A DNA stretch of 62,392 bases, the filler included, from Nitrospiraceae bacterium (GTDB lineage: Bacteria; Nitrospirota; Nitrospiria; Nitrospirales; UBA2166): assembly GCA_002726235.1 (NCBI GenBank). It is 7 parts of 7 records of this genome, joined end to end, with 100 filler letters (N's around TTAATTAATTAA, not from the genome) between each part and the next. Parts side by side here need not be neighbours in the genome. Positions count along the whole stretch, not along the records: positions 28,939 to 37,296 come from PBSN01000009.1; 6 more parts are not named here. One strand, 5' to 3'. This document shows, in pieces, positions 2,432-54,245 of this stretch; the first letter of the stretch is position 1; each line of letters begins with the position of its first letter. Both the position numbers and the translations under genes were made by a program. Under the pieces are notes generated by a model. The model was not told the DNA's origin. It did no database searches and saw only the letters and a program-made list of their open reading frames with translations.

Positions 2432-4435
<2,004 letters not shown>

Positions 4436-4482: not shown

Positions 4483-5691
4483 ATGAACATTAATAAGGTG
4501 TCAATTGAAGATATTGAAATCAGAGAAAAACGCGTATTCATCCGTGTTGATTTCAATGTTCCACTCGATACAAATGGTGGCCCCCTCATCATCGCCGACG
4601 ATACCCGCATTCGCTCCAGCCTTCCAACCATCAACTACGCTATAGACCAAGGAGCCAAAGTCATTCTCTGTTCGCATCACGGCCGACCTGCCGGGAAACC
4701 GGAACCCGAACACACCCTTGCTCCCATTGCAGCACGCTTGGGACGGCTACTGAAAAAAGATGTTCTGTTCGCGCGGGATTGTGTCGGGCAAGCTGTTGAG
4801 TCGCTCGCGGCCACAATGGCTCCCGGGGATGTCTTGCTGCTTGAAAACGTACGCTTTCACCCAGGAGAAGTGAACAACCACGAATCGTTTGCAAAAGCTT
4901 TGGCAGCACATGCCGATGTATACATCAACGATGCATTTGGAACGGCACATCGAGACCATGCGTCAACCACTGGGATTACCCGATTCGTCCAAACAACCGC
5001 CATGGGCTTCCTGCTTCGAAAGGAAATCCGCTATCTTGAAAGCGCCATCGTATCCCCTACCAGACCATTTGTCGCAATTCTTGGCGGAGCAAAAGTTTCC
5101 GGAAAAATCGGAGTCATTGACAATCTCGGAAAAACAGTTGACAAAGTCATTATCGGGGGAGGGATGGCCTTTACCTTCCTTAAAGCCCTCGGATTAGAGA
5201 TTGGAGCGTCAATGATCGAGGACGACATGGTGGATCGCGCACGAGAGATTCACCAACACGCCATTGAACGCGGGATCAAATTTTATCTTCCCGTCGATTG
5301 CGTGGTTGCTACACATCAAGACGCGGACGCCGAGACCAAGATCGTCCCGATACAAGAAATCCCAAACGACTGGATCGGGGTCGATATTGGACCAGCTTCA
5401 GCTCGGCTATTCGAAGAAGCGATTGAAAATGCGAAAACCATTTTGTGGAACGGCCCGATGGGCGTGTTTGAAATCGATGCATTTTCGCGAGGAACCTTCG
5501 CAGTAGCCCATGCCGTAGGCCATGCCTATGCGATGAGTATTGTGGGTGGTGGTGACACAGGTTTGGCCGTGCATCGGGCCCACGAATCGGAAAACATCTC
5601 CTTCGTCTCAACGGGAGGTGGTGCTGCCCTCCAATTTCTTGAAGGGCACAGCCTGCCCGGACTTGCTGTGCTACCCGACGTGTCCCCCTAA
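4483..5691 (+). CDS. pgk: Phosphoglycerate kinase
   Basis: RVDFNVP, LLENVRF, NDAFGTAHR, WNGPMGVFE, STGGGA. Confidence 0.99.
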   Translation: MNINKVSIEDIEIREKRVFIRVDFNVPLDTNGGPLIIADDTRIRSSLPTINYAIDQGAKVILCSHHGRPAGKPEPEHTLAPIAARLGRLLKKDVLFARDCVGQAVESLAATMAPGDVLLLENVRFHPGEVNNHESFAKALAAHADVYINDAFGTAHRDHASTTGITRFVQTTAMGFLLRKEIRYLESAIVSPTRPFVAILGGAKVSGKIGVIDNLGKTVDKVIIGGGMAFTFLKALGLEIGASMIEDDMVDRAREIHQHAIERGIKFYLPVDCVVATHQDADAETKIVPIQEIPNDWIGVDIGPASARLFEEAIENAKTILWNGPMGVFEIDAFSRGTFAVAHAVGHAYAMSIVGGGDTGLAVHRAHESENISFVSTGGGAALQFLEGHSLPGLAVLPDVSP

Positions 5692-19009: not shown

Positions 19010-19109
19010 NNNNNNNNNNNNNNNNNNNNNNNNNNNNNNNNNNNNNNNNNNNNTTAATTAATTAANNNNNNNNNNNNNNNNNNNNNNNNNNNNNNNNNNN
19101 NNNNNNNNN
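19010..19109. other. Artificial contig linker (also 26652-26751, 28839-28938, 37297-37396, 44707-44806, 53861-53960)
   Basis: Six identical 100-bp N-TTAATTAATTAA-N spacers with stops in all frames; composition and gene content change abruptly across each. Confidence 0.99.
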
Positions 19110-26651: not shown

Positions 26652-26806
26652 NNNNNNNNNNNNNNNNNNNNNNNNNNNNNNNNNNNNNNNNNNNNTTAAT
26701 TAATTAANNNNNNNNNNNNNNNNNNNNNNNNNNNNNNNNNNNNNNNNNNNNACTACATATGTTACATTAGATACATAGATGCCAACAGTACATTGAGAGG
26801 TGCGCA

Positions 26807-26962: not shown

Positions 26963-28093
26963 ATGGCACGAGCAGGGCGTAAAGACCGGGGATTGGTACA
27001 ACGCAAAGACACAGCGGGTAAACCTGTGTGGTATGTCAGGTTATGGGACCAGGGCCGGGAACGCTGGTTTGGATCATTTGCCAATAAGACACAGGCACGA
27101 GAATTCTATGAAGCACGAAAGCTCGAACAGCGTGAGGGCAAACTTTTCCCCGAACAATTCCAGCGGCGTGGGCAAGTGACTTTAGAGCAAGTCATTGAAG
27201 ACTACATCGCCGCGAGTACCAAGAAGTCGGTTAGCGATGATAGGCGTTATGCGCGGTTGTGGTTGAAAGAGTTTCCAGGGAGCAAGATTCGAGAAGTCAC
27301 GCCGAGCAGTATCGAGAAAGTTCGTCAACGGCTACTTGACCGAGGGCTCGCCCCAAGCAGCACCAACCGTGCTTTGGCTTTCTTGCGGCACGTCTTGAAC
27401 CTTGCGGTACGGGATGGGTTGTTGGCCGTCAGCCCAATGATTCAAGTGAAGTTCCTCAAAGAGTCGCCTGGAAAGTTACGTTACCTCAGTCTGGGGGAGG
27501 AGGCGAAGGTCTGTGAGGCGATCGGTCCGATGTATGCACCGTGGGTTCGGTTTGCCATTCTGACGGGACTACGCCAGATGGAGCAGTTTAGTCTTCGGTG
27601 GGAACATGTGGATCTTGAACGTGGGGTGCTCACGCTTCCCCACACGAAATCAGGTGAGGTTCAATACATGCATATCAACCACGAAGCTCAAATCATCCTA
27701 CGAAGCCTTGACTCGTGGCAACGATCAGTATGGGTGTTTCCCTCAGACAATTCGAGAACACACATGCAGCCGTTGAACTTCTATCATCGACACTACATCC
27801 CGGCTGTGAAGAAAGCAGGGCTTAGCGGTGTGACATGGCATACCCTCAGACACACATTCGCATCAAGGTTGGCCATGAGTGGGGCTACCGAACAGGATAT
27901 AGCTGCATGTCTCAGACACAGCACGACTGCCTTAGTGAAGCGATATGCGCATTTGAGTCCATCTCACCTAAAAGGAGTTGTCGAGAAGGTGGCGCGATTT
28001 GAAGAAATCGAGGCTGGAAAAACTGAAAACTCAGTTCCAACCGAGATTAAACCGGGGATAGAGCCTGTGGCTGATCGGGAGCAGGTAGCGTAA
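26963..28093 (+). CDS. int: Tyrosine recombinase/phage integrase
   Basis: N-terminal arm-binding-like segment (WYVRLW...FGSF), TGLR, TKSG, HTLRHTFAS, RH, RYAHL; ends 14 bp from the tRNA 3' end. Confidence 0.95.
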   Translation: MARAGRKDRGLVQRKDTAGKPVWYVRLWDQGRERWFGSFANKTQAREFYEARKLEQREGKLFPEQFQRRGQVTLEQVIEDYIAASTKKSVSDDRRYARLWLKEFPGSKIREVTPSSIEKVRQRLLDRGLAPSSTNRALAFLRHVLNLAVRDGLLAVSPMIQVKFLKESPGKLRYLSLGEEAKVCEAIGPMYAPWVRFAILTGLRQMEQFSLRWEHVDLERGVLTLPHTKSGEVQYMHINHEAQIILRSLDSWQRSVWVFPSDNSRTHMQPLNFYHRHYIPAVKKAGLSGVTWHTLRHTFASRLAMSGATEQDIAACLRHSTTALVKRYAHLSPSHLKGVVEKVARFEEIEAGKTENSVPTEIKPGIEPVADREQVA

Positions 28094-28325: not shown

Positions 28326-28838
28326 CTACACGAAATTTTTAAGCCGTTCGCTACGGCTTGGATGGCGTAGTTTCCGCAGAGCTTTTGCTTCGATCTGGCG
28401 GATACGTTCCCTGGTGACTTCAAAGTTTTGTCCGACTTCTTCAAGTGTATGGTCTGTGCTTTCACCGATCCCGAAACGCTTACGCAGTACTTTTTCTTCC
28501 CGAGGGGTTAATGCATTTAGCGAGTTTCCGATTTGTTTTTGGAGGTCGTAGCGAACCGCGGCATCGAGGGGAGAGAGTGTTTTTTTGTCCTCGATGAAAT
28601 CTCCGAGATGGCTATCTTCTTCTTCGCCGATGGGTGTCTCTAGGGAAATGGGTTCTTTGGAAATTTTTAATATTTTCCGAACCTTTTCGATGGGAATATC
28701 CATTTTTTCTCCGATCTCCTCAGGGAGCGGTTCACGTCCAAGTTGCTGAACGAGTTGGCGTGACATGCGGGTCAGTTTATTGATAGTTTCAATCATATGG
28801 ACGGGAATTCGTATGGTTCGAGCCTGATCGGCAATGGC
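28326..28838 (-). CDS. rpoD: RNA polymerase sigma factor RpoD, regions 3-4 (5'-truncated)
   Basis: [60 protein letters not shown]. Confidence 0.97.
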
Positions 28839-28938
28839 NNNNNNNNNNNNNNNNNNNNNNNNNNNNNNNNNNNNNNNNNNNNTTAATTAATTAANNNNNN
28901 NNNNNNNNNNNNNNNNNNNNNNNNNNNNNNNNNNNNNN

Positions 28939-31172
28939 GACGAAGGCGGAGCAGCATCTGCAGAGAGTTTCGTGCTTTCAAGATCATCAGGAATATCAGT
29001 GAACAGAGCAGTTTCCTCAGGAGAGAGAGGCTTGCGGCCGTAGAGTTCACATTTCTTCATGTTGACCTTGATGAGGAGCTTCTTGAGTTCGCTTCGAATG
29101 AAGAGGAAGGCTTCGCGAAGCACACGAACATCTTTGTGAAGAAGAGTGATGTCGTCCATGTAGGCGTAAACTTTCAGATCCTTGAAGCGTGGATCACTCT
29201 TGAGTTTACGGAGCAGTGGTTGGAGAAGAGCGCAGAAGAACAAGGGAGAGGTGACTGAGCCCTGGCGGCAACCACGCTGACTTTGAACACATTGAATCTC
29301 ATCCTTGTGGCGGAGGTACAAGTTGGAGTAGTCACCGTATTCAAGGTCGAAGAGGTGGCGGAACGGACGAAGGACTTCTTCAGAAGCGATAACTTCAGCC
29401 ATTTTATGGCGGCAGGGAGTGTTGTAGGCGTTGGAGCAGTCGACAGTCAAGACGTAGTACTCTTGATTCATGACGAGATCACGGACGGAGTGGATGATCT
29501 TTTCAACACCACCTTTGACCATAATACCATACTGACCGACGGCAGTAAAGAAGGCACTGAGCTCTTTGGCATGACGATCGAGGAGAAGTCGTGAGGGAAT
29601 TTTCAAAAGAGCTTCGCCCATGGCGATGGGGCGGACAGTGGGACAGCGGTCTCCAGGTTTTGATGGCTTGGGTAAGGCAATCAAGTTGCATTCACGAAGA
29701 ATCGCGCGGACGATGTGATTCTCGGGGAAGTCGTTGTTGGCGATGGCGTTGACAAGGTCGGTGATGCGGCGTGCCATGATGGTGCCGTGATGAAGATCCG
29801 TGAGGAGAGGGTGGAGTAGTTCTTCAGTCCAGCCGCTGGGGCCTGGAGCGGTACCATCACGATGACTCTTGACATCGTTGAGAACTTCTTGGATTGTGAA
29901 TGGCGGTTCGATTCTCACCTTCTCTTGATCCAGTTTCCAAGCAGAAGGTGGTCCACGAGTACAAGTCGCAGGATTGCGATGGTCGGTGTCGGGAGGAGCA
30001 GGGGGATGGAGACTCTTCATCTGATCGAGGATGCCAATCATATTCGGATATCCAGATTGGTGCCGTTGTGGGGTGAAGAAGGGTGGAAGAGGATTCACAT
30101 CAGCAATAGCACCCAGTAAAGTTTTGGCGGCTTTACCAGGACGACCGAGAGAGTTGAAGCGAAGAGCGCGATGAACGACGCGTCTCTCAATTCGCGGAAT
30201 CTCGTTGAACGATTCCTTGACAGATTTCTGAACTCGCTTAAAAGGATTAACTGTGAATTCAATCTTCTTTTTGTTGGAGTTGTTTTCATCATCATCATGA
30301 TCGTTGTCATCATCATCTTTATCAGCGTCGTCTGCATCGACTTTCTTGGGTTGGACTGTGGCTTTAGAAAGCATCACGTTGCGGACTTTGATGAGATGAT
30401 TATCAAATCTTGGAGCTTGATTGACGCAGTTGCCTTGGATCATGGAAGACCAAAGCGAGACAGGATCATTTCCAAAACGTTGGAGTTGTTCGAGAGTTTT
30501 CGGATGGTGTTGTTGTTGTTGTCCATCAGTGCCGTATGCAGGAGGCGGAGGACGTGTTGATGATGAAATGTTCGTAGAAGAATCAGTTGCACTGTTATCG
30601 TTATTATTATTATTATTATTATTATCATCGTCATCATTTTGAGAATCGCTTTTCATCTTGTCATTTTTGTTGTTCTCAGAAGACGCAGTCGGAGAAGCAT
30701 CTGTGCGAAGTGCGTTAGCATCTTGAGAACGGTAGATGGCGTCGAGGAAGATAGCAGCGGCCTCTTGATTTTGATGAATCTTCTCATGGCAGTTTTGGGT
30801 GAACTCGATTTCACTTTTCACAGCAGCTTCGCGGGCGTTGGAGGCTTGGCCGAGCAAGTAACGAGGCGCGCCGAGGAGATGGATCAAAAATTCAGCATTC
30901 ACTAGCAAGTTGGCGGCATCGCGTTGGAGTTTGTTGTAGTGAGAGGCTGCGACGGACTGTTTGTAGTTGTGAACGTCAGTGATTGTTGTCAAGAGGATTT
31001 GCCAGGAGCGATGGAGATGAGTTGGCAAAGCACGGACTGTGCGGAGATTGGCGATAGCAGCGGCCATGAAATTTTGCTTGAGATCTGGATCAGCAATGCC
31101 CTGAATGGCGTTGTGGACATTGTAGAGGGCTTCCTCTGAGCCCGTGTCGAGGCATTCAACAAATTTCTTCAT
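28939..31172 (-). CDS. Non-LTR retrotransposon RT, CRE/SLACS-like, 3'-truncated
   Basis: APGPSGW, RPIAMGE, QYGI..KGG, VDCSNAYN, RGCRQGS, AYMDD (29151-29162), VNMKKC; no APE domain N-terminally. Confidence 0.85.
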
Positions 31173-31299
31173 CGCGTTGTTGTTGATGGTATCTTCAGTA
31201 AGGAGAAGATCTTCAGCAAGGAGAAGATCATCAAATTATTACTGTTTTGTTGTTTGTTTTGTAGTTGCATCCAAGTTATCAAATCATTCTAAATCATTA

Positions 31300-34200
31300 T
31301 TAACCTTTAACAGAGGAAGAAAGAAAACTAGAAAGTTCTTGTCGCGCCAACCGCCCGAGAGAACCTCTGTTATCGTAGTATTTTCTAACCTCAGTATCAG
31401 TGATGAAGGCGGAGTCGGCAGTGCGGCCACGAGAAGGCTTATCAGCCCAGTTGTCCTTAGTGTTGACGTAGGACACAGAGAAGGAGAAATCCTCTTCGAC
31501 GAGGAAATTGACGGATTCGATAATCGCAGCATTGAGAGAAGGAGAAGTCTTGCTCTTACCCTTTTGAGCAGCGGCGACAACACTAGTGTTATCGATGCGG
31601 ATGTCGACGTTTTTGTTCTTGAGAAGTCGTTCTTTGAAGTGAGTGAGAGCGAGCCAGAGGGCGCGGGCTTCGAGTTCAGCGATTGTTTCAGCAGAAGGAT
31701 TGTGGATTTCTTTATCCCACTTACCACCAATAATTGCAACCGAGCCATCAGAAGAGATGAAGTAGGCTCCCCAGCCGGAGACAGAAGCATCAGTGAAAAG
31801 AAGATCGTAGTATTTATTTTTATTATTGTTGACATTTTCACCAGACGCAGGCAAGGAGAGAGAGGATTTTGCAGATTTCAACCACTTGTTGAGCTGGTCG
31901 CAGACGGAGCGTGGAAGTTCAACCTTGGTGTCGAGCGGCGTACCACGGTTGAGTTTGGAAACTTGACGGTTGGCCCACTTCATGGCGTAGAAGTAGTTGC
32001 CAGGGACTATGCGGAGCACACTAGAGCAGAAGAAGAGGCGGGAGATATCTTTCTCGAGATCGGTGATGAGGATTTCAGAGCCGTAGGCGTAGGACTGCGG
32101 GAGTTTCGAGAGAGTCTTGGAGGCGACGGAGACCTTGTGGTTCTTGTGGTCGAAGTGAATACCGATGAAGTCGTATTCGTCAGCAGCAGTGACATCACCA
32201 CCCTTCCAGGTGACATTGCAGGCCTTTCCAACGAGACGGATGCGATCGAGGTCGAGTTGAACATCTTCACGATTACCAGCAGTGCGGAAGCCATCGATCC
32301 AGACGGAGGTGCGAGTAGCAGCGGAGGCGAGCTTGACAGTTTCACCATTAATAACAGCAGTAGGCTTGACGGCGGTCATCTTACCAGCGATCGTTTCGAC
32401 GATGAGTTGCATCAATTCAGCGGAAGTGCGGAGGCCCATCGGAAGGCGAGTGAGTTCGTACCAGTTCTTCTCAGCATCGCAGAAGCGGAGCATGCGGCGG
32501 AATTCCTTGGGGATGACGACTTGGAAGAAGGAGATCTTGCAATCACCAGTACCAGCAGTTTCACGACGAACATCATCGATGAAGAAACCAGGAGCACGGA
32601 GCTGAGACATTTGAGGTTGATACTTGGCGACATCTTCGAGGTAGTCGTTGACGCAGTGGGTCCAGAGGATGGAACGGAGGCGTTGCTTCTTATCGGAGTC
32701 GAGTTCGACGACGTTGAACATGGTGTTCTGACCAACGGTGTTGCAGACATCTTCGGCAGGCACAGGAGCGGCGATACCATCAGCAGCGAGTTGTCGAGCG
32801 TGTTGAGGAAGATAGCGGCTTTGCTTCTCGGCGACGTTGTTCAAACGAGCTTGCTTCTCGGCGGAGATTTCATTAGAGAGATGACTAAGAGCGTCGGCGA
32901 AGGTGTTCTTCCAGAGAGTTTCGAAACGGCGAAGATGAGTGTCGGACATGAAGGTCTTGAGGCGTTCGAGATCGATGACCATGTCCTTGACGTTGTGGGA
33001 GTGAAGACGGATTGTTCTGTTCTGTTCATCATTGGCGGTAGAAGAAGAGTGAGACTTGCGGGCGAAAGTGTGCTTGGTGCGGTACTGGACGTAATCGTAG
33101 AGGTCCAACCAGCGAGCGTTTTCAAGAGCAGCAGAAGGAGAAGGAGAAGCAGCATCTAAAGAAGGCGAGTTGCTTTTTGAGTTCCGAACATTCTTGCGAG
33201 AAGAACCTTGTTGTTGATGTAACGAATTGTCGACTCCGGGAAGTGAGGATTCTGCTTGTCCTGATGCTTGGCCATGATCGGAAGAACGCGGAAGTCGAGC
33301 AGATCCTGATCGATGAACTGAACGAGCTTGTCCAGCGTCGTTCGCTTGAAGGAGTGACAAGTCAGGTTGCGGAGGATTCGGTCCTTCTTCAGCCAAGCAA
33401 GCATTTGATTGGTCGACTTGGGACACAACAACTGATCCTTCTTTAATTTCGAGATCTGACTTTTGAGAAGACGGAGCAGATGAGGATGTTTTTCTTCCAC
33501 CAACACTGTGAAGTTCACCGGACGGAACGGCTTCACTCTTGACGTTTTGATTGCTGACCCCCAACAAATCACGATTTCGTTCCTCTGAAGACACTGATGA
33601 TGGATGATGAAGTTGGCCTTGACGAGTTTCACCAGATCGCCCCACCTGCTTGCTGTTTTGTACGCCAGGTAGATGCACGCTTGAAGACGAGGATTGTTTG
33701 TTGCTGAGTTGTGAAGAAGATGTTGAAGTTGGGTGTCTGTCATCACCGGAGCCTGTTTTGGAGATTGGCTTGCCATCATTACACGACGACTCTTGAGGAA
33801 GTACGAGAGATTGTACGAGTCTCCCATTTCCAGCTCCACCATCAGAGTTTTGAGATTCTTGGCGTAATCCAGTTGAGTTGACGCCATTAACGGTTCCAGC
33901 TTGTTGTTGCGAAGGACTCGACGGTCCAGGACGAAGTTGATTAGACGAAGGTCTGTTGGAAGATGGTGTTGCTGATCGTTTGTTTCGGTCATGTAGTTGA
34001 TTGCGTTGGAGAGGAGGCTTGCCTTCTTGGTCCACGTTTCCTTCACGAACATGTTTTGAACTTGTTGCTTGAGATTCAGAATCCATGGATCCTGGATGTT
34101 GCAGCGCTTGAGAGACGATAGGATCACTTGACGAGCTACCTGCGACGACGTGAGCTTGTTGCTGTTGTTGTTGTTGTTGTTCATTTCGTTCAGCGGATCG

Positions 34201-34821
34201 AAGGTAGTCGAGCCACGCGGCGGTGACGGCTTGGTTGTGGTGCTTGGCGAAGACACGACGTTGAGAGTGGAAGGCGCGCCACTCTTTGCTGTTGCGCTTG
34301 ATGCCCATCTGACGCGGCGTGAAGAATTTCTTGGTTTCAGGGTTTGTCTGGAAGTAACGATTCCAGTACTTCGGCTTGAAATCTTCAGCNTGGATGAGAA
34401 CTTGAGTTTCGATGAAGGAGAAGTCGTTGNATGACGAAGGNGGACCTTTGAGAAGTTTGAAGTTGTCGAGGGATTCCGGGATGTACTCTTGCGGAATGCG
34501 GGAGGCGAGGTCCGACGTTGAGGAGGAAGAAGATGTTGCAATTGCTCTTGAGGAGGCTTTGTTTTGTTTTGAACTTGAACTTGAAGAAGATGATTGTTGA
34601 CGACGTGACTCTGCGGCTTCAACCGNAGCTTGAATTTTGTTGTTGTTGCTGTTGGAGGCGGAGACGGCTTGCGGCGCAGAGTTAATTTGATTGGTGTTGT
34701 TGGTGACGNTGTTTCCTTGTTGTTGAGATGATGATGAAACGGATTCGGTTGTCGTACTTGAATTTTTATCGCGGGCTGCATCACTGACGACATTCAGTGA
34801 GCTCCCGCCGANGCGTTTCCC
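31300..34821 (-). CDS. VIPER/DIRS-order RT-RNase H, probably expressed as a -1 frameshift fusion with gag
   Basis: GDCKISFFQV, RLPMG, VWIDG, FIGIHFDH; RNase H LFTDASVSGWG, IAELEARA, IDNT, NWADKPSR. The frame is open back to 34854, beyond the called ATG at 34308. Confidence 0.85.
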   Translation of the reverse strand, partial: GKRXGGSSLNVVSDAARDKNSSTTTESVSSSSQQQGNXVTNNTNQINSAPQAVSASNSNNNKIQAXVEAAESRRQQSSSSSSSSKQNKASSRAIATSSSSSTSDLASRIPQEYIPESLDNFKLLKGXPSSXNDFSFIETQVLIXAEDFKPKYWNRYFQTNPETKKFFTPRQMGIKRNSKEWRAFHSQRRVFAKHHNQAVTAAWLDYLRSAERNEQQQQQQQQAHVVAGSSSSDPIVSQALQHPGSMDSESQATSSKHVREGNVDQEGKPPLQRNQLHDRNKRSATPSSNRPSSNQLRPGPSSPSQQQAGTVNGVNSTGLRQESQNSDGGAGNGRLVQSLVLPQESSCNDGKPISKTGSGDDRHPTSTSSSQLSNKQSSSSSVHLPGVQNSKQVGRSGETRQGQLHHPSSVSSEERNRDLLGVSNQNVKSEAVPSGELHSVGGRKTSSSAPSSQKSDLEIKEGSVVVSQVDQSNACLAEEGPNPPQPDLSLLQANDAGQARSVHRSGSARLPRSSDHGQASGQAESSLPGVDNSLHQQQGSSRKNVRNSKSNSPSLDAASPSPSAALENARWLDLYDYVQYRTKHTFARKSHSSSTANDEQNRTIRLHSHNVKDMVIDLERLKTFMSDTHLRRFETLWKNTFADALSHLSNEISAEKQARLNNVAEKQSRYLPQHARQLAADGIAAPVPAEDVCNTVGQNTMFNVVELDSDKKQRLRSILWTHCVNDYLEDVAKYQPQMSQLRAPGFFIDDVRRETAGTGDCKISFFQVVIPKEFRRMLRFCDAEKNWYELTRLPMGLRTSAELMQLIVETIAGKMTAVKPTAVINGETVKLASAATRTSVWIDGFRTAGNREDVQLDLDRIRLVGKACNVTWKGGDVTAADEYDFIGIHFDHKNHKVSVASKTLSKLPQSYAYGSEILITDLEKDISRLFFCSSVLRIVPGNYFYAMKWANRQVSKLNRGTPLDTKVELPRSVCDQLNKWLKSAKSSLSLPASGENVNNNKNKYYDLLFTDASVSGWGAYFISSDGSVAIIGGKWDKEIHNPSAETIAELEARALWLALTHFKERLLKNKNVDIRIDNTSVVAAAQKGKSKTSPSLNAAIIESVNFLVEEDFSFSVSYVNTKDNWADKPSRGRTADSAFITDTEVRKYYDNRGSLGRLARQELSSFLSSSVKG
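33156..34184 (-). CDS. Tyrosine recombinase of a YR retrotransposon, overlapping the RT ORF
   Basis: ASRWGD (R), IKT (K), HSFKR (HxxR), AKH, TIRY (Y). Probable start is ATG 34184; the frame is open to 34793. Confidence 0.88.
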   Translation of the reverse strand: MNNNNNNSNKLTSSQVARQVILSSLKRCNIQDPWILNLKQQVQNMFVKETWTKKASLLSNAINYMTETNDQQHHLPTDLRLINFVLDRRVLRNNKLEPLMASTQLDYAKNLKTLMVELEMGDSYNLSYFLKSRRVMMASQSPKQAPVMTDTQLQHLLHNSATNNPRLQACIYLAYKTASRWGDLVKLVKANFIIHHQCLQRNEIVICWGSAIKTSRVKPFRPVNFTVLVEEKHPHLLRLLKSQISKLKKDQLLCPKSTNQMLAWLKKDRILRNLTCHSFKRTTLDKLVQFIDQDLLDFRVLPIMAKHQDKQNPHFPESTIRYINNKVLLARMFGTQKATRLL

Positions 34822-36836
34822 GACGAAGTGTTGTTGTTGCCACCGGAAGAACGATTATTATTATTATTGTTGTAGTTGTTCTTGTTTCGATTATTATTGT
34901 TATTATTATTACCANCACCACCTTTCTTCTTGAAACCATTGAAACCACCCTTGCGTCGAGGAGCCATGGTGCTGTTTTGGGCNGCAGCGGAGTGGGGGGT
35001 GTGTTGATCAAGTTCGAAGACGTTTTTGAATCCATTGTAGTTGAATTCAGGATTTCTCCAACTATCAGCCTTGGCTTGAAGCAAAACGAGCGTCTTGTCG
35101 AATTGTTGCTCCATGAGCTTGAACATGAATTCAGCGTGCTCGCGGTCGTCACTCTCGTCGTTTTCGTCGAAGTTCTCGAAACTTGAAGCGAACATGATGG
35201 CGGTCGTAGCTGAGCTGAGGAAGTACTTCACCATTTCCTTGTTCTTGGAGCTTTCAGTCAAACCCCAGGATTGTTTGCCGAGTTCGAGAAGAGCCTTGGT
35301 GATTTCAACTTCTCGTTGCTGATTGCCGTTGACGTGGGTGAGGCAGTTGTTCGCACGTTCTGCGTACTCGCGGAGGGACGTGCAGCCGGAGAAGATACCG
35401 CCCATTGCGGAAGTAGTGGCGAAAGGACGGCGGTTGTTGTTGTTGACTTGAGCTGGAGAAGCGGTCGATGGAGATTGCTTGACAGCCTTGACAATANTAT
35501 CAGCGAAGGTTTCGAAGACTTTCGCCATCTCACCAACCTGAGCTCCTGTTGCGACGTTGCGGTCGTTGGCAACTTGGGCAGCATCATCATCACGGGGATT
35601 GGGAGAGCCTTGAGCGAAGGAGACAGCAGAAGCGCCGTTGCGCGTTGGAGCAACAGAAGGAGTGTGACCTTTAGCACGGATGTTGGGGTCAGAAGCGAGA
35701 GCCTTGGAAGAAGCTTGTTCGGTGATGAACTGGGTGTCGAAGATGACGTGGTAGTAGACGACGAGGCGGTTGGGGAAAGGAGCAAGGATCTGNGCAGGCT
35801 TCGGTCTCAATTTTCCCTCAGGGTCCTTTTCGACGAAGTGCTTGATGTTTTGGCCGATGGCGGTGACGTAATCCTTGAGCGCTTCCTGCCAGTTGGTGTC
35901 GAGCGCATCGGGTGCCAACCAACCGACGACAGGCTCCCCTTCTTCGTTGTAACGGGCGATGCCACGCCAGTGGTAGTTCTTGTCGGGTCCTTCAACTTCA
36001 GCGTAACGCCATTCAGCACGGACACAAACACCACCAGACTTGGGAACGTATTGCTTGAACTTCTCGGCGAGGAGACGGTGATCAATACCGTTTCTGTCAC
36101 GCAATTCACCAGAGCCACCGATGACTAGAACACTGTTATCTTGAAGACCGCCATCAGCGGAATCGGTTGAGGCAGCCATGTTGGAAGGAGGAGNTTGTTG
36201 TTGTTGTTGAGTTTGACTTGAACTTTGAGTAGGAGCAGGCGTAGGAGCAGGAGCAGGAGTAGGAGCAGCAGCAGGAGCTTGGGGCTGAGTCGTTGCGACA
36301 GCAGGAACAGGAGGAGGTTGAACTGGAGAAGCGGGTTCGGGNGAAGATTTGGCAGCGGCTTCGAAGCGAGCTAAATCTTCTTGTTGAGGAGGCTTGTTGC
36401 TGTTCTTGGAGATGGCTTCACGGAGAACGGCAAGATTGTATTCGGGAACTTCACAGCCTTCCGAAATAATACGACGAGGAGTATCGACGAGTTGTTGGAC
36501 TTCTTCAGATGAGGCAGAGGCAGCAGAGGAGCTGATGATGCTGACGTTACCAGAGATGTCGTGTTGAGCGAACTTTCCTTCAATTAATTCCAAACCAGTC
36601 GAGAGAGGATCTTCACTGGAAATGAGACGCTTGAGAAAGAGGATGAGCTTGTAGATTTCTTCACGCTGTTCTTCAGTGTAGGCGTGAGGGGTGTTGTCAA
36701 TGATAGATTCGAAATCAGGCAAGTACTTTCCAGATTCACGGAGATAACTTTCGACAGTCGTGACAGGTGCGTTGGAAGTGATGGAGAAGGTGGGGTAGAT
36801 GAAGATTGACTTGACGGCGTTCCAATCGAAGTCCAT
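34794..36836 (-). CDS. Gag-like ORF1 of a VIPER-like element
   Basis: 680-aa ORF upstream of YR and RT with a basic/Asn-rich C-tail; assigned by position only. Confidence 0.6.
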   Translation of the reverse strand: MDFDWNAVKSIFIYPTFSITSNAPVTTVESYLRESGKYLPDFESIIDNTPHAYTEEQREEIYKLILFLKRLISSEDPLSTGLELIEGKFAQHDISGNVSIISSSAASASSEEVQQLVDTPRRIISEGCEVPEYNLAVLREAISKNSNKPPQQEDLARFEAAAKSXPEPASPVQPPPVPAVATTQPQAPAAAPTPAPAPTPAPTQSSSQTQQQQQXPPSNMAASTDSADGGLQDNSVLVIGGSGELRDRNGIDHRLLAEKFKQYVPKSGGVCVRAEWRYAEVEGPDKNYHWRGIARYNEEGEPVVGWLAPDALDTNWQEALKDYVTAIGQNIKHFVEKDPEGKLRPKPXQILAPFPNRLVVYYHVIFDTQFITEQASSKALASDPNIRAKGHTPSVAPTRNGASAVSFAQGSPNPRDDDAAQVANDRNVATGAQVGEMAKVFETFADXIVKAVKQSPSTASPAQVNNNNRRPFATTSAMGGIFSGCTSLREYAERANNCLTHVNGNQQREVEITKALLELGKQSWGLTESSKNKEMVKYFLSSATTAIMFASSFENFDENDESDDREHAEFMFKLMEQQFDKTLVLLQAKADSWRNPEFNYNGFKNVFELDQHTPHSAXAQNSTMAPRRKGGFNGFKKKGGXGNNNNNNNRNKNNYNNNNNNRSSGGNNNTSSGNXSAGAH

Positions 36837-37396
36837 ATATTGTAACTTGAAGTTGAGTTTTAAACAGAGAATAAAACTCNAGAGACTTTTTTTTTTTTTT
36901 TTTNTGAATTAAAAAGTTNANTTGAAATATTGAAGTAACTGATGCGAGACCAGCACGACAANAAATCNCCGAACCCTGGATTTTTTTTTTTTTTTTTACN
37001 CGTCCTTTTNAAAATTCTTACCATTTGGCAACGACAGATTTTATTTTATTTGGTTTTTTTTTTTTTTTTTAACAAAGAAAAGAAAAAGGAAAAAAAAGAA
37101 AAAGAAAAGAGCACACACACATAATTAGAAAAGAAAAATATATTGGAAAAGGGAAGAGGTATATTTTTTAATCTTTTTTTTTTTTTTTTAACAAATCCAA
37201 TTCTCATCTCTCTACTATCCTCAATTCCTTATTTTCTTCGCATTCAACAATTTCCTGCGTTCTAGAACTTCGAGGATACATGATAAGAAATGATTTNNNN
37301 NNNNNNNNNNNNNNNNNNNNNNNNNNNNNNNNNNNNNNNNTTAATTAATTAANNNNNNNNNNNNNNNNNNNNNNNNNNNNNNNNNNNNNNNNNNNN

Positions 37397-44562: not shown

Positions 44563-44806
44563 ACGGTCGAAACCTGGGAAAATTTTACAAATGATACTGC
44601 TAACTAAAATTAGACAGCGTTTTGTTTAAACTAGTGTAGTAGGTATTGCATTGATGCATTTTTAATGCATTTTGATTATATTTTAAAGTCATTAGAGTGG
44701 TTATAANNNNNNNNNNNNNNNNNNNNNNNNNNNNNNNNNNNNNNNNNNNNTTAATTAATTAANNNNNNNNNNNNNNNNNNNNNNNNNNNNNNNNNNNNNN
44801 NNNNNN

Positions 44807-53736: not shown

Positions 53737-54245
53737 GGGGGGGTTTTTGAGGGGAAATATGATAAGAGAGAGGGGATTTTAGGGGAAAAAGGGGAAGGAA
53801 ATGGGGTGAGAGATGAAACAAAGTCTCTTTTGAAAGAGGGAGACACTGAATTTTCGGGTCNNNNNNNNNNNNNNNNNNNNNNNNNNNNNNNNNNNNNNNN
53901 NNNNTTAATTAATTAANNNNNNNNNNNNNNNNNNNNNNNNNNNNNNNNNNNNNNNNNNNNATAAAAGTCTGTTCTGATTGATTAGCGTTTTGACGGACGT
54001 GACTCGCCTCTACATAGGAAACCCATTTTAACCGGTATTTCCCATCGGGATGTCGCTGGAACCGTTCCAGATCTGGATTGCCCCATATTCTAACACCTGC
54101 GCCCCCCCCTGTGTCTAGCGCGTGGCGATTTCGGGCGTCAGTGATCGGATGTGAGACGGATGACGAAGTGAATAGCGGGGGTTGAAATTTGGGTTTTAGC
54201 GTTTGACTTTCCGTCCGCTGAGCACGCACTCCGTTACCAGTGGCA

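Follow-up and report, generated by a model that had tools for sequence, protein, structure and literature searches.

A VIPER-like tyrosine recombinase retroelement joined to a non-LTR reverse transcriptase on a contig of a bacterial bin: probably a meeting of two independent mobile elements

The window, the whole 62,392-nt stretch of DNA that was analysed, comes from an assembly assigned to a Nitrospiraceae bacterium (GCA_002726235.1) and consists of several contigs linked by N44-TTAATTAATTAA-N44 spacers. The contig considered here, C9, is window 28939-37296, a complete 8358-bp contig of a 27-contig, 1.87-Mb assembly. Its genes follow one another on the minus strand in the order gag-like ORF (ORF1), tyrosine recombinase (YR, ORF2), reverse transcriptase/RNase H (RT/RH, ORF3), a 127-nt spacer and a non-LTR RT (ORF4) that runs off the contig end; the truncation of ORF4 at 28939 is a genuine contig end. 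The original prediction had described this arrangement from the sequence alone, and the genes were found at the positions it gave, as were a WIDG at the YxDD position of the first RT, an intact YMDD in the second, a spacer free of poly(A) and the Asn-rich low-complexity runs common to both halves.

ORF1 (34794..36836, minus strand) encodes 680 aa with Asn/Gln/Ser runs, contains 7 ambiguous bases and is gag-like by position only. It matched no Pfam family, and a search of the Atlas with a 170-aa piece of it returned nothing usable; its counterparts in the related loci L001 and L002 were 55-56% identical (tblastn). ORF2 (33156..34793, minus strand), a tyrosine recombinase of 545 aa, lies in the gag frame, from which it is separated by a single TGA followed immediately by an ATG. 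The residues R383, K416, H480, R484, H510 and Y525 were invariant among 15 sequences, and the predicted fold matched XerA and Cre recombinases, with TM scores on the target of 0.61-0.66 for Cre chains. PDB sequence searches with ORF2 gave nothing when it was used as a single sequence and an E-value of 0.4 at best with a YR profile. The dN/dS of the YR core against L001 and L002 was 0.05.

The heptamer GGGAAAC at 34815..34821 (minus strand) is a candidate -1 frameshift site: it is phased X XXY YYZ relative to the gag frame, precedes the gag TGA by 25 nt and has a weak candidate stem 3' of it. The same heptamer in the same phase was located 25-28 nt ahead of the TGA in five of six sequences (the window, L001, L003, L005 and L006; not L002), and in these five ORF3 is in the -1 frame relative to gag. 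Translation of gag would halt at the TGA, a -1 frameshift at GGGAAAC could produce a Gag-linker-RT/RH fusion that crosses the YR gene in another frame, and the YR product could come from readthrough of the TGA or from a start at the adjoining ATG. The idea that this in-frame TGA is read under a different genetic code was dropped, since ordinary stops otherwise close the ORFs and the TGA is conserved along with the frameshift site.

The ORF3 frame extends over 31300..34854 (minus strand; 1184 codons from stop to stop, with the ORF call at 34308..31300) and its stop is at 31300-31302. The first ~565 codons overprint the gag terminus and the entire ORF2 in a different frame, and the C-terminal part contains the RT and RNase H. 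A model of the C-terminal 639 aa (pLDDT 84) matched the RTs of CaMV, HIV-1, MoMLV, foamy virus and Ty3 with Foldseek E-values of about 1e-15 to 1e-13 (best 2.7e-15). A single-sequence PDB search with the ORF3 C-terminus returned nothing, and the window protein had no Pfam match, most relatives also scoring under threshold. The RNase H Asp was present in 148 of 151 aligned rows, and D477, E517, D543 and D593 were nearly invariant (at least 90%) among 21 sequences. The dN/dS against L001 and L002 was 0.106-0.119 for the part that encodes RT/RH only and about 1.1 in the overlap.

The WIDG of ORF3 (32290..32301, minus strand) is placed by the model in the turn between strands E303-307 and E310-315. 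The representatives library held 1325 relatives of ORF3, and motif C was read in 151 aligned rows, which are the window and the 150 best representatives: 58 had D-G, 66 D-N, 23 D-D and one D-S, while three were gapped. D-G or D-N therefore occupies the position in 124 of the 151 aligned RTs, the motif A Asp was retained in 146, and on the tree the position changed between D, G and N 10 times or more. WIDG is a conserved trait in a family under purifying selection and not a defect of the window copy. As it is family-wide, and the dN/dS of RT/RH is ~0.11, no helper polymerase is needed on that ground; the suggestion in the original prediction that the CRE-type RT perhaps supplies polymerase activity is not supported, and the WIDG RT is probably the YR element's own working polymerase. 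A literature search at listing level returned nothing on motif C of VIPER or on YR retroelements of diplonemids, which is not a claim that either is unpublished.

At the 5' end, the leader at 36926..37296 (minus strand) is a partial A1 arm of a split direct repeat, the contig starting within A1. Window 37190..36924 was 69% identical to L001 4446-4754, a segment that sits between the two B copies of L001, and the leader similarity stops at a 9-mer (window 36934..36926). The B1 arm (31217..31348, minus strand) starts inside the last ORF3 codons, and its 3' limit is set by the breakpoint only. In L001, the closest relative (85% nt identity), RT/RH is followed directly by B1-A2-B2, in which A2 is like the window 5' leader and the 99-nt B copies (4276-4374 and 4775-4873) are 100% identical and start at the base homologous to that of the window B1. 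The window holds only the partial A1 and B1, and ORF4 stands where A2-B2 would be.

The gene order gag-like, YR, RT/RH was shared by the window and all five loci that hold a YR ORF (L001, L002, L003, L005 and L006), a sixth locus, L004, holding RT/RH alone. The ORF identities and these relatives agree with the original prediction of a YR retroelement with VIPER-type gene order. Relatives sharing WIDG/WVDG end in B1-A2-B2 or in the canonical continuation, without a second RT. An ORF4-like RT downstream of RT/RH was found by tblastn and blastn in none of the three loci with at least 480 nt past the stop, in which the downstream DNA is shown by two close relatives (L001 and L002) and one distant one (L003) only. 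The exact 30-nt B-arm pattern gave no matches in genome contigs and metagenome contigs.

The remaining part of the contig (28939..31199, minus strand) belongs to a non-LTR (LINE-like) retrotransposon, of which it holds the 5' part; ORF4 (31172..28939, 744 codons) is cut just past the RT by the contig end. Its YMDD is at 29162..29151 on the minus strand, and the contig stops 30 codons past the last RT motif. ORF4 matched Pfam RVT_1 (2.7e-18) and, in the PDB, LINE-1 ORF2p (6.4e-9, the best by E-value) and R2 (1.7e-7). Its relatives P0168-P0172, which are 30-34% identical, start about 90-220 aa ahead of their RT and have after it a Cys/His motif and then conserved RH, E, PD, D and K positions (aligned by eye), which, going by the motif, we take to be the R2/CRE-type endonuclease; P0168 had no PDB sequence match. 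The group of ORF4 would then be one in which relatives have a restriction-like endonuclease. A search for longer, full-length ORF4 proteins returned a single protein, 30% identical. In L008, the 3.1 kb upstream of the RT match carried neither YR nor RT/RH and, as far as their sequences tell, the relatives of ORF4 are stand-alone elements. As a non-LTR RT with R2 as well as LINE-1 ORF2p among its PDB matches, ORF4 resembles the CRE/SLACS/CZAR, R2, NeSL and R4 elements; it differs from elements with a restriction-like endonuclease in that this copy stops before the endonuclease region and that its best PDB match by E-value is LINE-1 ORF2p, not R2. SLACS and CZAR sit in the spliced-leader gene (excerpts of PMC5814959), whereas the window copy of ORF4 abuts the YR element instead of a spliced-leader site.

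The two halves meet at 31193..31228 (minus strand), which consists of two tandem 18-nt units with one base different, within the 127-nt spacer between the ORF3 stop (31300-31302) and the ORF4 ATG (31172). The 17 nt at 31216..31200 are part of neither canonical sequence. In public runs, the evidence for which is Logan contigs and not reads, contigs in four of four runs (X1, X2, X7 and X16) fit the window rightwards from 31217 and leftwards enter one identical other sequence; in L002 (87%), the sequence past the base homologous to 31217 is homologous to the consensus of these loose ends. On the other side, two ORF4-side contigs of X1 depart from the window beyond 31197/31199, the other ORF4 flank being just 38-40 nt. 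The breakpoints were set by the loose ends at 31217 and 31197/31199 and by the L002 alignment; public-run contigs branch at 31348 as well as at 31217. The contig depth in X2 was higher over 31217-31348, although depth was not taken as copy number. In X16, an RNA library, contigs cover parts of YR, RT/RH and ORF4, which is no demonstration of transcription.

No contig among those shown in the public runs crosses the junction. In X2, X7 and X16 nothing was found over 31168-31216, but contigs drop rare variants and this is hence no evidence of absence; the summed depth of bin 31123-31304 equals that of the contigs ending at 31167 and those starting at 31217, so nothing is seen over 31168-31216, and in X1 the depth cannot decide whether these positions are covered. 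Neither the four ORFs nor the C9 DNA occurred a second time in the assembly, and 401 same-phylum genomes searched with window 30700-31700 gave the source assembly only, together with three chance matches of 30-41 nt. Viral contigs held no RT/RH relative and, against ORF4, only two matches (70 aa, 27% identity).

We consider C9 to be two independent mobile elements of one host that met in one copy, a TE-next-to-TE junction, with a probability of about 0.75. The first would be a nearly complete VIPER-like YR element, with A1 leader, gag-like ORF, YR, RT/RNase H and B1, broken at 31217, where its canonical form runs on into A2-B2; 17 extra bases would connect it to a separate non-LTR element, represented here by its 5' part. 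That relatives have no second RT and that both halves occur with other neighbours supports two separate elements. The joining most likely came about through insertion of one element into or beside the other, and the tandem duplication of 18 nt with one mismatch that spans the joint is consistent with a biological origin. With the 3' junction of ORF4 and the remainder of the YR element beyond the contig, insertion is the likeliest event and not a proven one, in whichever direction it went. The shared strand and reading frame, the Asn-rich runs and the ORF4 ATG just 27 nt from the breakpoint count against two separate elements, as a composite would look alike. VIPER is reported to lie often among other retroelements (passages of PMC5814959), and chimeric copies arising from insertions into existing copies have been described for TATE (in part of PMC6681497).

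The joint could be a real nesting or, less likely, a chimera. An artefact, in which an assembler or amplification chimera fused two abundant repeats of the same eukaryote, is unlikely, although C9 has several traits that would be expected of one: it is short, consists of repeats and shares a bacterial bin with three other eukaryotic retroelement contigs, both of its ends fall inside repeats, its ambiguous bases (7 within ORF1) suggest that several copies were perhaps collapsed, no displayed public-run contig crosses the joint and the exact-pattern scans give no second copy. However, as the bases 31216..31200 are in neither canonical path, real molecules must have carried them, and a near-perfect 18-nt tandem duplication is unlike the product of a k-mer mis-join. 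The original prediction had offered a composite two-RT element. On that reading the YR element would have the non-LTR RT as its fourth gene and would draw from it the polymerase activity lost by the WIDG RT. The single strand, the short spacer without poly(A), the intact YMDD and the non-canonical motif C of the first RT speak for it, but relatives with the same motif finish in split direct repeats or canonically with no second RT (junction recurrence 0 of 3), their D-G and D-N RTs are under purifying selection and each half turns up beside other sequence in public runs, which together make the composite extremely improbable. Its other proposal, targeted nesting, has no support, as no recurrence of the junction came to light; in all four runs the YR element continues differently at 31217.

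The enzymes of R2 and LINE-1 are known to jump from one template to another end to end, with extra bases at the joint. A chimeric retrocopy could have arisen if, during target-primed reverse transcription, the non-LTR RT copied its own RNA up to the 5' end and then switched to a YR transcript that ended at B, entering it at the 3' end, so that both were inserted as one piece. The position of the joint, with the branch point that closes the B arm on one side and a point 27 nt ahead of the ORF4 ATG on the other, and its short repeated filler are what such a jump would leave. Nothing indicates YR transcripts ending at 31217, however; in four of four runs the rightward-fitting contig enters the canonical continuation homologous to the post-B sequence of L002, and X1 shows other ORF4 copies that extend further upstream. 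We regard this route as very unlikely, and return to the meeting of two transposons as the best reading of the two RT genes that stand in tandem on this short contig from a metagenome.

Among known systems, the YR element is most readily compared with VIPER and TATE, VIPER-like YR retrotransposons that PMC6681497, in the passages available, describes from kinetoplastids only. It shares with them the three ORFs (gag-like, YR and RT/RH) with extensively overlapping YR and RT/RH and a gag-like ORF without a recognisable domain (PMC6681497, in part); their split repeats A1 ... B1-A2-B2 are matched in full by the relative L001 and, as partial A1 and B1, by the C9 element. It differs in coming from a marine metagenome, and the likeness is one of architecture, not of a tree; the GGGAAAC/TGA-ATG gag-pol-YR junction and the W-x-D-[G/N] motif C find no mention in those passages of PMC6681497. 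The element would add a further member to an already known VIPER-like architecture. DIRS-1 of Dictyostelium is likewise a YR retroelement with overlapping ORFs.

In Ngaro elements RT/RH lies ahead of YR, whereas in the C9 element YR lies ahead of RT/RH. Both genes are present in each, and the A1, B1-A2-B2 pattern of split direct repeats, complete in L001, is also that of Ngaro and PAT-like elements (excerpts of PMC6681497). DIRS-like elements differ in that their terminal repeats are inverted and that they have an internal complementary region (same excerpts); repeats of this kind were not seen here, in a search that covered direct repeats.

C9 is stray eukaryotic repeat DNA binned with a bacterial genome; with three further eukaryotic retroelement contigs besides C9, the bin carries at least four. 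The euglenozoan host proposed in the original prediction stands at the level of a lead, through the nearest Atlas clusters, which list Euglenozoa. The YR element, which comes from marine samples, is a well-preserved relative of the VIPER-like group, about which little is known, and it appears to be active. A bolder proposal, which we hold to be doubtful, is that it represents a large, globally spread lineage of VIPER architecture outside the known kinetoplastid hosts, whose RT gave up the second YxDD Asp while it stayed under purifying selection and would be either a non-canonical polymerase or a protein with a new role and a polymerase borrowed in trans. Its expression would depend on the conserved -1 frameshift at GGGAAAC, which leads into a pol frame lying across the entire recombinase gene. 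For transposon biology the gain is modest: the element offers a clear candidate for a frameshift site and a motif C that departs from YxDD throughout the family, a departure open to biochemical test. The feature-based Atlas neighbours also include a hepadnavirus P protein cluster, in agreement with the RH tree in the available part of PMC6681497.

On contig C9 (window 28939..37296; 8358 bp, the whole contig lying inside the window), the layout described in the original prediction was present in full. All four ORFs are on the minus strand: ORF1 (36836..34794, 680 aa), ORF2 (34793..33156, 545 aa), ORF3 (frame open from 34854, with its ATG at 34308 and its stop at 31300), which carries WIDG at 32301..32290, and ORF4 (from 31172 to 28939, where the contig ends), which carries YMDD at 29162..29151. 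The 127-nt spacer between ORF3 and ORF4 lacks poly(A). ORF4 is a genuine non-LTR reverse transcriptase (RT): it matches Pfam RVT_1 at 2.7e-18, and LINE-1 ORF2p and R2 are its best matches among solved structures. Sequence searches of Pfam and PDB gave nothing for ORF2 and ORF3, whose identities are settled by family alignments and folds. In an alignment of 15 ORF2 family sequences, R383, K416, H480, R484, H510 and Y525 are invariant, and the predicted structure matches the XerA and Cre recombinases, which makes ORF2 a tyrosine recombinase (YR). The C-terminal 639 aa of ORF3 were modelled with a mean pLDDT of 84 and match the CaMV, HIV-1, MoMLV, foamy-virus and Ty3 reverse transcriptases (E 1e-15 to 1e-13), and the acidic residues of its RNase H (RH) are conserved in the family. 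The gag label of ORF1 is purely positional.

To examine the junction between the two elements, the N-free part of C9 (28939-34389) was compared with Logan contigs, rather than reads, from four public sequencing runs of four studies. In all four runs, a contig agrees with the window rightwards of 31217 and continues leftwards in one common other sequence. The close relative L002, one of only three relatives with DNA downstream of RT/RH, also proceeds after the base homologous to 31217 into sequence clearly homologous to this continuation, which is the normal course of the YR element towards A2, an arm of its split direct repeat. A second branch point, at 31348, corresponds to the A2-to-B2 joint of the relative L001. 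From the other side, two contigs of run X1 match ORF4 up to 31197/31199 and then diverge into other sequence. The branching at both places means that each half also occurs beside other sequences. Near-identical versions of the stretch are present in many marine metagenomes, with 20 of the 24 runs listed, from 15 studies, carrying all or part of it.

We consider it likely (probability roughly 0.75) that C9 is a copy in which two independent retrotransposons from a single host have become joined. A single composite element with two RTs, as originally suggested, is very improbable, as the YR element continues differently at 31217 in every run compared and ORF4 is found diverging in X1. A junction made by an assembly or amplification chimera is a more serious alternative, though still an unlikely one. 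No window-like crossing of the joint was demonstrated in the Logan contigs of the four runs. The joint consists of two breakpoints and 17 bases (31216..31200) absent from both paths, and these bases with their flanks make up a tandem pair of 18-nt units with a single mismatch. This resembles the product of biological joining, or of a small later duplication, more than a k-mer mis-join.

If two independent elements were joined, the YR element would break off at 31217, the point from which its canonical form proceeds to A2, and would there adjoin the 5' part of the non-LTR element. The non-LTR element may have inserted into the YR element, or the YR element may lie inside an older non-LTR copy and have lost A2-B2. 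Template jumping is a route to chimeric retrocopies, and C9 may, less probably, be such a copy.

It had also been suggested that ORF4 perhaps supplies polymerase activity, the other RT having WIDG in place of YxDD. Motif C was compared across 151 aligned rows, made up of the window protein and the best 150 out of 1325 relatives from the representatives library. Its last two residues are D-N in 66 rows, D-G in 58, D-D in 23, D-S in one and gapped in three; the first residue is W, Y or F, giving W/Y/F-x-D-G, -D-N or -D-D, and the commonest tetrads are WIDN (44), WIDG (23), WVDG (19) and WVDN (15). Of the 151 rows, 146 retain the motif A aspartate and 148 the first RNase H aspartate. WIDG is thus no lesion of the window copy, and with a dN/dS (window against L001/L002) near 0.1 the ORF3 RT belongs to a working protein family with predicted polymerase activity. 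With the motif family-wide and dN/dS this low, the case for a second polymerase appears to lose its basis. A FastTree phylogeny of 148 rows, built with the motif columns removed, shows at least 10 switches among D, G and N at the end of motif C; the second 'aspartate' position is both unusual and labile in an RT family under purifying selection.

Scanning metagenome contigs recovered six related loci, of which L001 and L002 are close (85-87% nucleotide identity) and L003, L004, L005 and L006 are distant (36-41% amino acid identity in the best segments). Gag and YR share a frame, with a single TGA between them, in five sequences (the window, L001, L003, L005 and L006), and in four of these an ATG directly follows the TGA. 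In all five the ORF3 frame is -1 of gag and opens 40-346 nt upstream of the TGA. The heptamer rule for -1 frameshifting is X XXY YYZ, and GGGAAAC occurs in this phase 25-28 nt upstream of the TGA in 5/6 sequences examined. The exception is L002, which looks like a damaged copy because its gag and YR frames differ and the GGGAAAC site is absent. This junction (window 34794-34854, minus strand; L001 734-797; L003 2430-2475; L005 1405-1440; L006 2122-2157) and its GGGAAAC are retained across relatives at only about 40% protein identity. There may be a conserved stem downstream of GGGAAAC, although the candidate is weak (12 pairs, 6 with compensatory changes, -7.4 kcal/mol).

In the window, L001, L002, L003, L005 and L006, no stop interrupts the pol frame from the final part of gag through all 1.6 kb of the YR gene (33156-34854, minus strand). 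We infer from these sequences that expression follows a gag/-1 frameshift/pol scheme, with pol overprinting the entire YR gene. The selection pattern fits this: dN/dS is 0.05 in the core of YR and 0.11 in the part of ORF3 that is RT/RH only. Where ORF3 overlaps YR, the dN/dS of its frame is about 1.1, and this stretch therefore looks like an overprinted linker, kept open but unconstrained as protein.

L001 carries two 99-nt copies, 100% identical, B1 (4276-4374) and B2 (4775-4873), which begin within the final ORF3 codons; the segment between them matches the window 5' leader (37190..36924). Such an A1 ... B1-A2-B2 arrangement of split direct repeats is described in PMC6681497 for VIPER, TATE, Ngaro and PAT-like elements, alongside gag-YR-RT/RH ORFs with extensive overlap. 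The YR element is accordingly VIPER-like by its architecture, in ORF order, overlaps and repeats, and this part of the original assignment holds at that level. For the euglenozoan host also proposed, Euglenozoa are among the few taxa recorded in the nearest Atlas clusters. A hepadnavirus P protein cluster is another Atlas neighbour, echoing the RH tree of PMC6681497; both neighbours are leads only. As VIPER-like elements are reported in PMC6681497 from kinetoplastids, this marine, well-conserved, multi-sample element is a new member that could extend the host range.

ORF4 has few relatives in the databases searched, with P0167 at 74% identity and the others at no more than 36%, the shared region being confined to the RT and the ~90 residues that precede it. 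Its first ~330 residues, with Asn and Asp runs, are lineage-specific; a variant contig in two runs has two 3-nt insertions in this N-terminal region, as would be expected of coding sequence. In the full-length relatives P0168-P0172, the RT is followed by a Cys/His motif and then by conserved RH, E, PD, D and K positions, which we take to be a restriction-like endonuclease of R2/CRE type. The window copy stops short of this putative endonuclease region, so 'CRE/SLACS-like' is a reasonable guess rather than a result. The remainder of ORF4 exists in public data, as a 3079-nt contig of run X2 covers 28942-29825 and extends ~2.2 kb past the end of C9.

The 62-kb window comprises several molecules, being a chain of contigs and contig starts of the assembly G000 (27 contigs, 1.87 Mb): the start of C2, C5, the start of C8, C9, C10, C11 and C23. 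The joints are N44-TTAATTAATTAA-N44 spacers (19010-19109, 26652-26751, 28839-28938, 37297-37396, 44707-44806 and 53861-53960), and features should therefore not be read across them. G000 is mostly bacterial, with a marker-gene completeness of 90.65% and contamination of 0.49%. Three further short contigs are eukaryotic retroelements: C5 (19110-26651), Ty3/Gypsy-like, with a 2503-aa polyprotein (RVT_1, RT_RNaseH and a sub-threshold Integrase_H2C2 match); C10 (37397-44706), with an AP-endonuclease-type non-LTR ORF adjoining a SET-domain ORF; and C11 (44807-53860), Copia-like, with a separate CCHC zinc-knuckle ORF and two RVT_2 ORFs, one with sub-threshold rve (integrase-core) and SH3_retrovirus matches. 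Since a search of G000 found no second copy of C9 at DNA or protein level, and given these three contigs, the best reading of C9 is repeat DNA from a eukaryote that lived alongside the bacterium and was binned with it. The bin thus holds eukaryotic repeat DNA that a marker-gene contamination of 0.49% leaves hidden. All 20 single ambiguous bases of C9 fall in the gag and leader part (34390-37010) and none in the YR core, RT/RH or ORF4, which suggests that several slightly differing copies were collapsed there. The adjoining start of C8 carries two bacterial ORFs named from translation only, neither of them related to the eukaryotic YR: a phage-type tyrosine integrase (26963..28093, plus strand) and a sigma-70 C-terminal fragment truncated by the spacer (28326..28796, minus strand).
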